Origin: a virus
Direction: 5' to 3' (one strand)
Length of the DNA: 30,878 nucleotides
Virus genome (UHGV): UHGV-1533542
Shown: in pieces, positions 6,930 through 26,807 of the stretch
Numbering within the stretch: position 1 is the first letter of the stretch
Layout of the letters: every line of letters begins with the position of its first letter
Notes under the pieces: generated by a model
What the model was told of the DNA's origin: nothing
The model's database searches: none
What the model saw: the letters and a program-made list of their open reading frames with translations, nothing else
Position numbers and translations under genes: made by a program

Positions 6930-7033
6930 GTTAAATCTCCAGATAGTCGCAGCACCCGTTGCGCCGCATATCTGGTTATTCTATTACCTGAAAAACCATA
7001 TATGGATAGATAACCCATAAATACGAAAAGATA

Positions 7034-7048
7034 TTACCTTTCAGGTGA
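7034..7048. promoter_or_regulatory. ATTACC-N5-GGTAAT-type dyad, copy a (TTACC-TTTCA-GGTGA; one mismatch)
   Basis: Inverted repeat in the divergent intergenic region between tailspike start (6929) and the 85-aa gene; a partial copy (TTACCTGAAA) at about 6984. Confidence 0.5.
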
Positions 7049-7085
7049 TTTGCAAAACGTGCTGGATAGCAAACAAATTATTTGA

Positions 7086-7105
7086 TACTGTATATTTATA
7101 CAGTT
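7086..7105. promoter_or_regulatory. LexA (SOS) box
   Basis: TACTGTATATTTATACAGTT: CTGT-N8-ACAG with AT-rich spacer, 18/20 identical to E. coli consensus TACTGTATATATATACAGTA; 20 bp upstream of ATG 7125. Confidence 0.75.
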
Positions 7106-7124
7106 ATTGCATGGAGAAGATAAG

Positions 7125-7382
7125 ATGCAGCAGTATCACTATCCACTGGAAGACGGATTTACCGAAAGGATTCACACGCCGGGAGGCGTCAGGTCACTGG
7201 TGGAGGGATCGCACTTGATGAAATTACTCCGGGATCTCGATAAGGATGGATTTAATGTCGATGGCCCACTTGCCGAACTGACTGCACTGATTAACTACGT
7301 CACCAGCTCACAGATGTCTATGCAGGATCTGCAAACACATCTCGACTATTGTGCCGAACAATTACGAAAACAAACCCGGTAA
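7125..7382 (+). CDS. 85-aa protein preceded by a LexA box; paralogous to C-terminal domain of the Bro-N protein (antirepressor candidate)
   Basis: ATG with SD GGAGAAG; ORF opens at TTG 7107 but ATG 7125 preferred; by-eye alignment with residues ~148-228 of the 8528-9214 protein (HLMKLLRDLDKDGFNVDGPLAELT...DLQTHLDY vs LLMNLLNQLQEDGHDVSGAAAELT...DIQTHAEY). Confidence 0.65.
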   Translation: MQQYHYPLEDGFTERIHTPGGVRSLVEGSHLMKLLRDLDKDGFNVDGPLAELTALINYVTSSQMSMQDLQTHLDYCAEQLRKQTR

Positions 7383-7389
7383 ATTTAAA

Positions 7390-7405
7390 GGCCGCAAGAG
7401 CGGCC
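7390..7405. terminator. bidirectional hairpin terminator between convergent genes
   Basis: GGCCGC-AAGA-GCGGCC stem-loop with A/T-rich flanks, between the stop at 7382 (+) and the stop at 7405 (-). Confidence 0.5.
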
Positions 7406-8133
7406 TATCGTTTCGCTTTGTGCTCATCCCAGCACGTTTTGCACCATGCCATTAAGCCGTCCGCATTTTGATTATTAGGGTAAAAGCTGGTTCGTTTTCT
7501 GCGGACATTACAAATTGGGCACCACTTCATATGGCGTGTATTCTTTGGGCCATCGAGACACCTTGCACACCACTTAGTCAATCCATCTGGATTTTTTGAC
7601 GATTTCCTGAATTTTTCATATGGAAGGTTTATTCTGCATCGCAAGCACTGCTTGCTACCACTTGAAACTCTGTTAGCTGATTCTTCTTTTGGCGGCGATG
7701 CAGAAGGTATTCTTGCTGGCTCTGATACTGCCTGAGGTGCTTTTTTAGATGACTGAGACGATATGTCATCACCAGGGAATCTTCCATGATATGCCGGACG
7801 CGTTGACACTCCAGGTGGAAGCTCAGCTGTAAACGGCTTTGGCTGAATCAGTTGCCTCTCTTTTGCTAACTCCTGCTGTTTATAATATGTCTGGATTACC
7901 GCACTATCATAAGCAGGAGGTGCGGAAATATTAGGCGCATTACCTCCAGTTTTTTGAAACTGAGTAGAGGTGTGTTCTATCACCTGTGTACGATTAATCG
8001 TTATCTCCCCATCTTCGGTCTTTATCGTTTTGTTATGATTAACGACCGTACGATCAGAGATCTTAGTCTTGTTCTGGTTGATAACGTAAATAATCACCGC
8101 AACCACACCAACAACTATCCAGAAAACTTCCAT
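7405..8133 (-). CDS. membrane-anchored protein with C-terminal tandem zinc ribbons, function unknown
   Basis: SD GAGGA 6 nt before ATG; N-terminal TM helix (VFWIVVGVVAVIIYVI); Pro/Ser-rich linker; C-terminal Cys cluster CLRC...WCARC...WCPIC...WCKTC (two CxxC-N~20-CxxC units). Confidence 0.7.
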   Translation of the reverse strand: MEVFWIVVGVVAVIIYVINQNKTKISDRTVVNHNKTIKTEDGEITINRTQVIEHTSTQFQKTGGNAPNISAPPAYDSAVIQTYYKQQELAKERQLIQPKPFTAELPPGVSTRPAYHGRFPGDDISSQSSKKAPQAVSEPARIPSASPPKEESANRVSSGSKQCLRCRINLPYEKFRKSSKNPDGLTKWCARCLDGPKNTRHMKWCPICNVRRKRTSFYPNNQNADGLMAWCKTCWDEHKAKR

Positions 8134-8153
8134 TGCTTTTCCTCACAATAACA

Positions 8154-8168
8154 TTACCTTAAAGGTAA
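8154..8168. promoter_or_regulatory. ATTACC-N5-GGTAAT dyad, copy b (perfect; TTACC-TTAAA-GGTAA)
   Basis: Perfect inverted repeat about 20 bp upstream of the RBS of minus-strand gene 7405-8133, in the divergent region shared with the Bro-N gene; weaker related site CTTGCTTTCAGGTGA at 8172-8186. Confidence 0.55.
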
Positions 8169-8246
8169 TATCTTGCTTTCAGGTGATCAAGCGTTAAACG
8201 CAATCAACCAAATACGGTTGATTTTAATATTTCTTCGCGTTTATCA

Positions 8247-8261
8247 TTACCTTTGCGGTAA
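8247..8261. promoter_or_regulatory. ATTACC-N5-GGTAAT dyad, copy b3 (TTACC-TTTGC-GGTAA)
   Basis: Perfect TTACC-N5-GGTAA inside the long 5' region of the Bro-N gene. Confidence 0.5.
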
Positions 8262-8527
8262 ATTTACATCGCACTCCTCTTGTGCCATAGTAATCGGGCA
8301 CTGGATTTTGCCAGTGCCGGGATTGGCGTCCCGGGTTACTACAGAGGCACATATGCCGCATAAGCGGTTTTTTTATGTGTAAAGCGCACCTATTCTATGG
8401 TGGGCTGTGTGGGGGCACCGAAAGGTGCGCCGGGTCCTTTGTAGCCGGTTACGCCAACCCTGCACAGTTCACCACCAACCGATTGGCGTCGGTAGTGGTG
8501 ATTAACCTAACTACAAAGGTGATCACT

Positions 8528-9214
8528 ATGACTGCTAACGTAACCCCATCTGTTTTTCATTTTGAATCAGAGGCAACCATTCGAGCCATTGTTATTGATG
8601 GAAATCCTTGGTTTGTTGCCAAAGACGTTATTAAAGCTCTTCAACTGACAAACCCCACTATGTCAATAAAATCTCTTGATGATGATGAAAGGGCTAAATT
8701 TAACTTAGGCCGTCAAGGCGAAACCAATATTATCAACGAGTCAGGCCTCTACACACTGATCCTCCGCTGCCGCGATGCGGTGACACCAGGCACTATCCCC
8801 TACCGCTTTCGTAAATGGGTTACAGGTGAGGTTCTTCCTCAGATCCGCCGCACCGGAAGTTACATTAAAAACTCGCTCCCGCAGGAAGAACGCATAAAGA
8901 TGGTTGCCGACCAGGTAGCCAACGCCACGGCGTCAGCAGTAATGCAGGCGATGAAGATAGAGAACAAAACCTACAGTGCCCCGCTGAAGCCCGGCTACCG
9001 CAGCCTGATTCACTCGCCGTCTGGTGTTCTCGGCCTGACGGAGAACTCACTGCTGATGAATCTGCTGAACCAGTTACAGGAAGACGGGCACGACGTATCG
9101 GGCGCGGCGGCAGAGCTGACCACCATGTTCTGCTACATCGTCGGTGTGAGCAAATGCCTGCGTGATATCCAGACGCACGCGGAGTACATCAACGACAAAG
9201 CAGGATTCTTCTGA
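8528..9214 (+). CDS. Bro-N domain protein (phage antirepressor-like) with C-terminal domain paralogous to the 85-aa protein
   Basis: ATG 8528 with SD AAGGTG chosen over the RBS-less ATG 8375; N-terminal Bro-N signature (FHFESEATIRAIVIDGNPWFVAKDVIKALQL); hairpin with weak T-tract after stop. Confidence 0.85.
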   Translation: MTANVTPSVFHFESEATIRAIVIDGNPWFVAKDVIKALQLTNPTMSIKSLDDDERAKFNLGRQGETNIINESGLYTLILRCRDAVTPGTIPYRFRKWVTGEVLPQIRRTGSYIKNSLPQEERIKMVADQVANATASAVMQAMKIENKTYSAPLKPGYRSLIHSPSGVLGLTENSLLMNLLNQLQEDGHDVSGAAAELTTMFCYIVGVSKCLRDIQTHAEYINDKAGFF

Positions 9215-9247: not shown

Positions 9248-9287
9248 ATTCTGTACAGATTGCAGACTGTTGGTGAATAGCGTACTA

Positions 9288-9302
9288 TTACCTCAAGGGT
9301 AA
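9288..9302. promoter_or_regulatory. ATTACC-N5-GGTAAT dyad, copy d (TTACC-TCAAG-GGTAA)
   Basis: Perfect TTACC-N5-GGTAA about 60 bp upstream of the small ORF / toxin-like gene pair. Confidence 0.5.
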
Positions 9303-9362
9303 ACGGATTGGTTTCATTTTTATTAATCCGTGTAATGAACTTATGAGATATGAGGTAATGTC

Positions 9363-9542
9363 ATGCGAAACGAAAAATTGCAGATGCGTAGAGCGCAAGC
9401 TGCCGCAAGACGTTCTTTCAATGGAAGCGTAGAGTGCGTAAAAGTTACTATGACAAAAGATCACGCAAGTCGCGTATCCCGCGCTTTCTTTGATTCTCGT
9501 AACAATAAGGAAAATTATGAGTTCGTCTGCGTCGCAGAATGA
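9363..9542 (+). CDS. small ORF (59 aa) upstream of and overlapping the toxin-like gene; antitoxin candidate
   Basis: ATG 9363 preceded by SD GAGG (gaggtaatgtcATG); basic 59-aa product; overlaps next gene start by 26 nt in another frame; below the ORF-track size cutoff; coding status unproven. Confidence 0.3.
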   Translation: MRNEKLQMRRAQAAARRSFNGSVECVKVTMTKDHASRVSRAFFDSRNNKENYEFVCVAE

Positions 9543-10062
9543 TAAAAATCAAATTGTCAGATATAAGGGTCGAGTATTGCATACGCAAAATTTCTCGGCC
9601 CTTTGTGCATCTGATCTTGAGCTGAAGAAAGTATCTGATGCCTTTACCCAGTATTGGAAAACGGGATACCATCCATCTCTTGGTAAAGATGCTGCATTTG
9701 CTCGTCCGACAGAAATGCTTAAACTAAATGTCAGGCATACTCATGTCGATAACCAAGACTATATTCCAGAAGATAGTGATAAAAAACACACTGGTAAAAA
9801 ATCATCTTGGGATGCATGGAAAAATATAGCGTCTGTGCAAGTAAAATGCATACCAACAAGTGATTGCTTTTTAGTTTATTCGGTAAATCACAATCGTGAT
9901 GCGCTGGTTATGTTTTTTGTTGACGCAGATGCCCACAACATAACTGAGCAAGAAGAGTTTAAAGAGGCAGCAATCACTATCAGTTATCAATTCTTTGAGA
10001 AAACAAAAACAGAACCAATGCCTTTAGAAGAAGATCTTTTTTCTGATAAATGGAAGGAATAA
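9517..10062 (+). CDS. 181-aa protein with YafO-like toxin features (candidate mRNA-interferase-type toxin)
   Basis: ATG 9517 with SD AAGGA (ORF opens at TTG 9490); by-eye similarity to my recollection of E. coli YafO (F.QY.K.G..P..GKDA, L.V.HTHV, F/HLVY...AL....D..H); strong terminator follows. Confidence 0.6.
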   Translation: MSSSASQNDKNQIVRYKGRVLHTQNFSALCASDLELKKVSDAFTQYWKTGYHPSLGKDAAFARPTEMLKLNVRHTHVDNQDYIPEDSDKKHTGKKSSWDAWKNIASVQVKCIPTSDCFLVYSVNHNRDALVMFFVDADAHNITEQEEFKEAAITISYQFFEKTKTEPMPLEEDLFSDKWKE

Positions 10063-26730: not shown

Positions 26731-26807
26731 GTGGCATTAGCTCAGTTGGACAGAGCAACCGCCTTCTAAGCGGTTGGTCGCAGGTTCGAATCCTGCATGC
26801 CACGCCA
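26731..26807 (+). tRNA. tRNA-Arg (anticodon UCU), phage-encoded
   Basis: Cloverleaf read by eye: acceptor GTGGCAT/ATGCCAC, D-arm GCTC..GAGC, anticodon stem ACCGC/GCGGT with loop CTTCTAA (anticodon TCT), T-arm GCAGG-TTCGAAT-CCTGC, encoded CCA; body close to but distinct from E. coli argU as I recall it. Confidence 0.88.

Follow-up and report, generated by a model that had tools for sequence, protein, structure and literature searches.

An SPC32H-type ant module with a LexA box in a Uetakevirus prophage of Escherichia coli, and a Bro-N-fused relative of its protein

The DNA analysed here, a stretch of 30,878 nucleotides referred to below as the window, carries between positions 7033 and 7406 what is very probably the ant module of a Uetakevirus prophage of Escherichia coli, orthologous to the ant module of SPC32H and, by homology with it, responsive to the SOS system. 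As the ortholog of a system that has been published and structurally solved in SPC32H, the LexA-ant module is already known. The first-pass annotation of this DNA had proposed a LexA-controlled antirepressor directed against a non-cleavable repressor, and this guess at the function proved right, the product of the gene being orthologous to the crystallised Ant of SPC32H. It had also suggested that the switch might be uncharacterised, which does not hold for a protein about 88% identical to a crystallised one (5D50_E) whose gene is labelled 'ant' in KC911856, the SPC32H record. For the E. coli prophage this homology leads one to expect that LexA binds its box, that ant is induced by SOS and that Ant binds the repressor Rep.

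Genomic context of the prophage

The window comes from an epsilon15/phiV10-like (Uetakevirus) genome and is 97% identical over the region to Escherichia phage TL-2011b. A prophage of approximately 40 kb in E. coli ECE170, inserted between guaA and yfgI, matches the window at 100% identity, and the first 2 kb or so of the window consist of the host genes yfgG, yfgH and yfgI. Between ant and the structural genes there is an island of about 2.9 kb, with a 242-amino-acid membrane/zinc-ribbon gene, a second antirepressor gene and a YafO toxin module; both SPC32H and epsilon15 lack it. Prophages of O157 and O103 strains are found among the relatives of this genome.

Characteristics of ant and its protein

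The ant module consists of four features, listed here by their positions in the window.

7033 to 7049, unstranded: Rep-type operator ATTACCTTTCAGGTGAT upstream of ant, abutting TTGCAA at 7050-7055
7086 to 7105, unstranded: LexA (SOS) box TACTGTATATTTATACAGTT, the sole LexA-consensus-like site in the window
7125 to 7382, plus strand: ant, encoding a predicted antirepressor of 85 amino acids, ortholog of SPC32H Ant, with the Shine-Dalgarno sequence GGAG at 7113-7116
7389 to 7406, unstranded: GC-rich hairpin between the convergent ant and 242-amino-acid genes, with a terminator score on the minus strand only

The open reading frame of ant extends from the ATG at 7125 to the TAA at 7380-7382. Its product matches a single PDB sequence, chain E of 5D50 ("Anti-repressor protein", SPC32H Ant), to which phmmer aligns residues 2-84/85 with an E value of 4e-47; the figure of about 88% identity to SPC32H Ant was obtained by tblastn. 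The gene is divergent from the tailspike gene and faces the virion genes, a position shared with SPC32H, and the tailspike neighbour is present also in epsilon15. Between this gene and SPC32H ant the synonymous sites are nearly saturated (pS 0.67) and dN/dS is approximately 0.05; ant is under purifying selection. The protein is 100% identical to QZE12053.1 of phage vB_EcoP_ZX5.

Neither Pfam nor NCBIfam contains a family model for Ant, and PHROG 450, which corresponds to the Ant family, is listed as being of "unknown function". A Pfam scan of the protein at E<=1 returned no DinI family and only a sub-threshold match to DUF724, in agreement with the earlier view that it does not resemble DinI. 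The hairpin at 7389-7406 has 7 pairs, 6 of them GC; on the plus strand its stem is followed by tatcgtttcgcttt and falls below the threshold of the terminator scan. The epsilon15 record labels the corresponding stem-loop a terminator.

LexA box and promoter region of ant

The LexA-like box noticed at 7086-7105 was confirmed by a consensus scan: TACTGTATATTTATACAGTT differs from the E. coli LexA consensus TACTGTATATATATACAGTA at 2 positions and matches it at 18 of 20. It is the only site with three or fewer mismatches in the 30.9-kb window, and no such site was encountered in 100 dinucleotide-preserving shuffles of the window. The bare core CTGT-N8-ACAG occurs four times in the window (0.39 expected), and of these copies the one at 7086-7105 alone has an AT-rich spacer. 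The coordinates and numbers of the first reading were accurate to within one base throughout, the distance from the end of the box to the ATG being 19 nt and not 20.

The tailspike-ant intergenic region of the window was aligned with those of TL-2011b, SPC32H, epsilon15, Klebsiella phage BUCT711 and the Enterobacter phages BUCT554 and Tyrion. Against the diverged background of these ant promoters, two blocks are seen to be conserved, one being the LexA box and the other the palindromic sequence ATTACC-N5-GGTAAT. The palindrome is conserved in all six compared phages, and CTGT-N8-ACAG upstream of ant is kept in five of the six Uetakevirus lineages (TL-2011b, SPC32H, epsilon15, BUCT554 and Tyrion), the box of BUCT711 having a degenerate left half (ATGT...ACAG). 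Comparison of SPC32H with its sibling record SPC32N shows just 2 base differences in the 948 nt around ant, one of which falls in the LexA box, where ACAG of SPC32H is replaced by AAAG in SPC32N. SPC32N is reportedly the lytic variant that led Kim and Ryu to the system in 2013.

A simple sigma-70 scan of the window returned no promoter for ant, and two candidates were picked out by eye. TTGCAA at 7050-7055, together with a weak -10 element near 7073-7079, would place the box at about +1 to +20. Alternatively, TAGCAA at 7067-7072, an 18-nt spacer and TATATT at 7091-7096 would place the -10 element within the LexA box.

It might be argued that the palindromic box is a promoter element or the site of a phage factor, and not a functional LexA site, so that ant would be expressed independently of SOS. 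Such a reading can draw on the degenerate left half in the Klebsiella homologue and on the sigma-70 scan, which returned no promoter for ant. We regard it as extremely unlikely. A match at 18 of 20 positions is absent from the shuffles, both CTGT and ACAG are kept in five of six diverged promoters, and the SPC32H/SPC32N pair differs precisely at a core base of the box. In addition, PMC7380047 describes the antirepressor of Salmonella prophages, SPC32H included, as being made after LexA self-cleavage. A LexA-controlled ant is thus the reading retained in what follows.

The repressor Rep and its operators

The Rep protein of this prophage (WP_000836290.1, 194 amino acids) is encoded, to judge from the ECE170 prophage, about 5 kb past the right end of the window, its gene lying at 6959-7543 in the numbering of sequence L006, which is not that of the window. 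A tblastn search of the window with SPC32H Rep gave no match. Rep aligns over its full length with chain A of 5D50, "Repressor" (E 4e-42, 42% identity). Pfam identifies two HTH domains in Rep and no Peptidase_S24 (autocleavage) domain, a composition that would fit a repressor needing an antirepressor instead of RecA-stimulated self-cleavage.

The palindrome ATTACC-N5-GGTAAT is encountered 7 times in the window (0.79 expected) and 14 times in the whole prophage (1.05 expected), where the copies cluster around rep and also lie between other genes. In the epsilon15 record, the equivalent of the palindrome upstream of ant carries a 'repressor' protein_bind annotation. From this conservation, enrichment, clustering around rep and annotation, the palindrome is therefore considered to be the operator of the phage repressor. 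The copy upstream of ant, ATTACCTTTCAGGTGAT, has one mismatch to the palindrome; it may add repression by Rep to the control of ant, or may equally serve the divergent tailspike promoter.

Rep proteins of this group fall into two sequence classes. One comprises those of E. coli, BUCT554 and Tyrion, which are 69-78% identical to each other (76% between the E. coli prophage and BUCT554), and the other those of SPC32H and Klebsiella, which are 64% identical; identity between the classes is 43-48%. Rep of the E. coli prophage is 42-43% identical to SPC32H Rep, and 45% in the C-terminal part. Ant is 79-88% identical across both classes and appears much more constrained than its target.

Since Rep is only 42-43% identical to its SPC32H counterpart against 88% for Ant, cognate recognition between the two proteins is not guaranteed in the E. 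coli prophage. This disparity would suit a small Ant that no longer acts on its own diverged Rep and that works in trans against other prophages or has some other SOS function, the Bro-N fusion described below being the true cognate antirepressor. The sole experimental evidence in the E. coli lineage does concern the Bro-N protein (ORF4 of ZX5), and trans-acting crosstalk between antirepressors is, according to PMC7380047, established for Gifsy prophages. BUCT554, however, combines a Rep of the E. coli class with the small Ant only, having no fused copy, which makes it probable that both classes of Rep are served by Ant. All lineages, moreover, maintain the reading frame, the operator and the LexA box, and the Ant domain is restricted to phage records that also encode Rep. 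A loss of cognate recognition is therefore judged quite improbable, and Ant is considered here as a probable antirepressor of the Rep of its own prophage.

A Bro-N-fused paralogue behind an antisense RNA leader

A gene for a second, larger protein lies 1.1 kb downstream of ant. This locus comprises the following features.

8153 to 8169: Rep-type operator, a perfect copy found in the palindrome scan
8246 to 8262, unstranded: Rep-type operator ATTACCTTTGCGGTAAA, abutting the candidate -35 element of the isrK/C4/Bro-N transcript
8298 to 8374, plus strand: isrK-like small RNA (Rfam RF01394; score 56.7 bits, gathering threshold 50)
8393 to 8479, plus strand: P1 c4-like antisense RNA (Rfam RF01695, matched over its full length; score 79.5 bits, gathering threshold 45)
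8528 to 9214, plus strand: protein with a Bro-N domain (residues 18-104) and an Ant-like C-terminal domain (residues 147-224, nt 8966-9199), most likely a second antirepressor

The Bro-N domain is recognised by PF02498 with an E value of 5e-20 (score 72.3 bits, cut-off 25.6), and the protein matches anti-repressor families of PHROG as well. Paralogy between the 85-amino-acid protein and the C-terminus of the Bro-N protein, first suggested by eye, was borne out by BLASTP, with 31 identities in 78 ungapped positions (40%, E 8e-16) between residues 2-79 of the former and 147-224 of the latter. When the shared domain was searched against the PDB, both copies matched the antirepressor 5D50_E, the C-terminal 80 residues of the Bro-N protein with an E value of 1e-13. 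From 29 homologues, AlphaFold2 gave a model of the Bro-N protein whose mean pLDDT was 54, with values below 50 in the C-terminal domain, and which was too poor for a fold search.

The region preceding the Bro-N gene has the organization of an RNA-controlled immunity locus. A candidate promoter, TTTACA (8263-8268) and CATAGT separated by 17 nt, ends at 8291, and the isrK/C4/Bro-N transcript would start near 8298, which is position 1 of the isrK model. Rep operators probably control this transcript. The isrK-like RNA has its own terminator at 8355-8368, followed by a run of T. Within the C4 RNA, the loop CCUUUGUAG (8436-8444) is complementary at 9 of 9 positions to CUACAAAGG (8511-8519), in the Shine-Dalgarno region of the Bro-N gene, and the segment ACGCCAA (8451-8457) is complementary at 7 of 7 positions to UUGGCGU (8483-8489). 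Both target motifs are duplicated, being found inside the isrK-like RNA and just upstream of the ATG at 8528. No separate small ORF resembling icd or orf45 is evident upstream of the Bro-N gene; an ATG at 8375 is in frame with it, reads through the C4 sequence and would give a product of 279 amino acids.

The first-pass annotation had suggested an SOS-triggered switch in which the stand-alone and Bro-N-fused copies target one partner. A common partner is indirectly supported; a place of the fused copy within the SOS switch is not upheld. The scan of the window shows no LexA box at the Bro-N gene, which is preceded instead by the isrK/C4 antisense RNA leader, and for this reason the fused copy would not be under SOS control. 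Together with the complementarity of C4 to the Shine-Dalgarno region and the abutting operator, these characteristics make the Bro-N protein most likely a second antirepressor, under RNA-based immunity control and outside the SOS switch.

A close relative of this protein has been studied in vB_EcoP_ZX5. ORF4 of ZX5 is 82% identical to the Bro-N protein overall and identical to it from about residue 75 to the end, and Rep of ZX5 is identical to that of the present prophage over the 193 residues compared. Overexpression of ORF4 lowered prophage titres from 10^9 to 10^6 (about 1000-fold) and promoted the lytic state, the readouts of the study being phage titres and transcripts only (Li et al. 2022, PMC9782041). 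A sibling prophage in E. coli E57 has the same isrK/C4 leader and a C-terminal domain 100% identical to that in the window, with an AntA head replacing Bro-N. The Bro-N protein probably targets the same Rep as Ant.

Distribution and architectures of the Ant domain

A word-index protein search with Ant recovered almost only stand-alone orthologues, and the fused architectures were revealed by an exhaustive profile search. The family so defined comprises 60 clusters at 50% identity, in which the Ant domain is found either alone, in proteins of about 85-95 amino acids, or C-terminal to a Bro-N, AntA, Phage_pRha or ORF6N domain. Across stand-alone and fused versions 21 columns are invariant. The domain is present in 34 of 50,697 phage records; a Rep homologue is encoded in 36 records, and these include all 34. 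Amongst 5,426 complete E. coli genomes, 529 contain the ant locus, its product being named "hypothetical protein" in every sampled row, and 470 contain the fused Ant domain. No Gifsy phage is included in the 34 domain-bearing records, and AnrP of Gifsy-1 therefore probably does not share the Ant-like C-terminal domain.

The co-occurrence of the domain with Rep, the exchange of heads in E57 and the overexpression of ZX5 ORF4 suggest that the C-terminal domain is the Rep-directed part of the fused protein. Another possibility is that the similarity reflects a shared oligomerisation or scaffold helix bundle only, the fused protein acting through Bro-N on a target other than Rep. The N-terminal domains concerned (Bro-N, AntA, Rha and ORF6N) are regarded as DNA-binding in their own right, the two copies in the window share only 40% identity, the structure model of the Bro-N protein is uninformative, and the readouts of the ZX5 study were phage titres and transcripts. 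Against this, the heads are exchangeable (Bro-N in the window, AntA in E57, Rha or ORF6N in other representatives) while the C-terminal domains of the window and E57 are identical, the fused domain is likewise confined to phage records encoding Rep, and the 21 invariant columns run through both kinds of protein. A mere scaffold is on balance unlikely, and we favor a C-terminal domain directed at Rep.

Comparison with known antirepressor systems

The Ant/Rep switch of SPC32H (PDB 5D50, 5D4Z) is the closest known system. Its antirepression was reportedly described by Kim and Ryu in 2013 (J Virol 87:11775) and by Kim et al. in 2016 (PNAS 113:E2480). In both phages Ant is of the same length to within one residue at 88% identity, and its gene is transcribed divergently from that of the tailspike, behind a promoter in which LexA box and Rep operator are placed alike. 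The operator palindrome is identical, and the two Rep proteins, homologous from end to end, are both without an S24 domain. The present prophage differs in its host, E. coli, in its Rep, which is of a second sequence class (43% identity), and in the island of approximately 2.9 kb with the second antirepressor, which SPC32H is missing.

The same logic, in which a small LexA-repressed antirepressor binds and inactivates a non-cleavable repressor, is known from Tum of coliphage 186 and from Gifsy prophages, reportedly through the work of Shearwin in 1998 on the former and of Lemire et al. in 2011 on the latter. In the Pfam scan Ant has no DinI-type match at E<=1, and in phage genomes its domain is found only in Rep-encoding (Uetakevirus-type) records.

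The Bro-N copy alone has counterparts in the immI locus of P1 and P7 (c4 RNA - icd - ant) and in the isrK-orf45-anrP locus of Gifsy-1 (Hershko-Shalev et al. 2016, PMC4825925). The common arrangement is that of an antirepressor gene behind an isrK-type RNA and a c4-type antisense RNA, with c4 loops complementary to repeated upstream motifs and to the ribosome-binding site. The present locus differs in having no separate icd/orf45-like ORF, its place being taken by the in-frame ATG at 8375, and in a C-terminal domain that is the Uetakevirus Ant domain; its regulation is a prediction.

In vB_EcoP_ZX5 the correspondence extends to both antirepressors and the repressor, with ORF4 82% identical, Rep identical over 193 residues and the small Ant over all 85. 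The ZX5 paper (PMC9782041) makes no mention of LexA, SPC32H or a shared Ant-like domain, and leaves the small ant product as a hypothetical protein.

Proposed mechanism of induction

In the lysogen, host LexA bound to the SOS box at 7086-7105 would keep ant silent, and Rep would hold the lytic promoters at its ATTACC-N5-GGTAAT operators. DNA damage would activate RecA and lead to self-cleavage of LexA, upon which Ant would be made. Ant would then bind the C-terminal tetramerisation domain of Rep, which in SPC32H is the Ant-binding domain according to PMC9986798. Two Rep dimers of SPC32H are taken up by one Ant tetramer (PMC9638917), and the DNA-binding tetramer of Rep is thereby broken up; the same capture here would vacate the operators and derepress the lytic genes. 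The prophage would thus respond to two separate inputs, one from SOS and the other RNA-based and immI-like. As Ant acts as a tetramer, its stand-alone and fused forms might also form mixed oligomers.

Significance for Uetakevirus prophages

Because the analysis re-identifies a published switch, its main value is one of annotation. The protein is still named "hypothetical protein" or assigned an "unknown function", despite a crystal structure and a mechanism for a protein 88% identical to it. The predicted inducibility by way of LexA and Ant bears on the triggering of prophages by antibiotics in pathogenic E. coli, given the O157 and O103 relatives.

Two points may not have been stated in print, as far as our limited access to the literature allows us to say. 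The first is that the Ant domain forms the constant C-terminal module of RNA-controlled Bro-N and AntA antirepressors. The second, which follows from this sharing of the domain, is that such prophages may each have two differently wired antirepressors, probably aimed at one Rep. Gifsy-1 already pairs a LexA-controlled with an IsrK-controlled antirepressor, and dual wiring is therefore a variant on a known theme. We put forward, as a tentative proposal with something less than an even chance of being correct, that the Ant fold is a portable Rep-binding module of which Uetakevirus prophages, in some 9% of the complete E. coli genomes, would possess two copies, the first on its own under LexA and the second joined to exchangeable, DNA-binding Bro-N or AntA heads under c4/isrK, so that two independent signals, from SOS and from an RNA-based immunity circuit, would converge on one non-cleavable repressor. 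The recurrence of the Ant domain in RNA-controlled fusions offers a testable hypothesis of multi-input control of prophage induction.

Integration site and tRNA

Host chromosome, carrying yfgG, yfgH and yfgI, occupies the left end of the window from position 1 to about 2100, and the prophage lies in the guaA-yfgI interval. An attachment site at the 3' end of guaA, which matches the position of this prophage, has also been reported for ZX5, phiV10 and epsilon15 (PMC9782041). A tRNA is found among the minus-strand structural genes, corresponding to the annotated tRNA-Arg of E. coli ECE170; SPC32H likewise has a tRNA-Arg past its terminase genes, in a similar place.

26731-26804, plus strand: tRNA (Rfam, 73.3 bits)

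The antirepressor gene and its surroundings

The gene ant (7125-7382) encodes the 85-aa antirepressor Ant, has a dN/dS of about 0.05, and is found in 529 of the 5,426 complete E. coli genomes in RefSeq. Every RefSeq entry sampled from E. coli labels its product "hypothetical protein", which represents an annotation gap, since the structure PDB 5D50 exists. Ant proteins are 79-88% identical among phages whose repressors (Rep) belong to two classes, with only 43-48% identity between the classes; the antirepressor is under far tighter constraint than its target. Over 948 nt around ant, SPC32H and SPC32N differ at two places, a change in the LexA box and one G to A substitution, the latter within the tailspike gene, at its 5' end.

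Convergent with ant is a gene that is missing from SPC32H, epsilon15, ZX5 and the sibling prophage of E. coli E57. The C-terminus of its product gives cysteine-rich or zinc-ribbon-like matches (phrog_6762, and weakly endonuclease VII, Lar and Stc1), and its N-terminus (8041-8133) looks hydrophobic by eye.

7405-8133, minus strand: 242-aa gene

RNA leader of the Bro-N gene

The Bro-N gene, which most likely encodes a second antirepressor, is preceded by a leader whose 248 nt fold with a z-score of -5.2. Motifs complementary to the loops of the C4 RNA recur within isrK and again at the ribosome-binding site of Bro-N.

8298-8527: Bro-N leader, with isrK-like RNA and P1 c4-like antisense RNA

An in-frame ATG at 8375 would extend Bro-N upstream (over 8375-8527), across the C4 RNA sequence, to a product of 279 aa, the form called by many gene callers (for example, P0121). 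This longer form could be an artefact, or could be the counterpart of the translational coupling of P1 icd and Gifsy-1 orf45.

YafO module and operator-like palindromes

Downstream of Bro-N lies a YafO module, in which a 59-aa ORF located upstream of the toxin gene and overlapping it may encode the antitoxin.

9287-9303: Rep-type operator
9363-9542: 59-aa ORF (phrog_6685)
9490-10062: YafO-family toxin gene (Pfam, E 1e-5)

The operator-like palindrome ATTACC-N5-GGTAAT occurs in the window at 7033, 8153, 8246, 9287, 26393, 29586 and 29604, with copies upstream of the ant, isrK/Bro-N and YafO modules. The ECE170 prophage region contains 14 such sites, spread over intergenic regions throughout the prophage rather than only adjacent to rep. 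This distribution of sequence motifs, prophage-wide and ahead of all three modules, suggests a broad Rep regulon that would include accessory genes.
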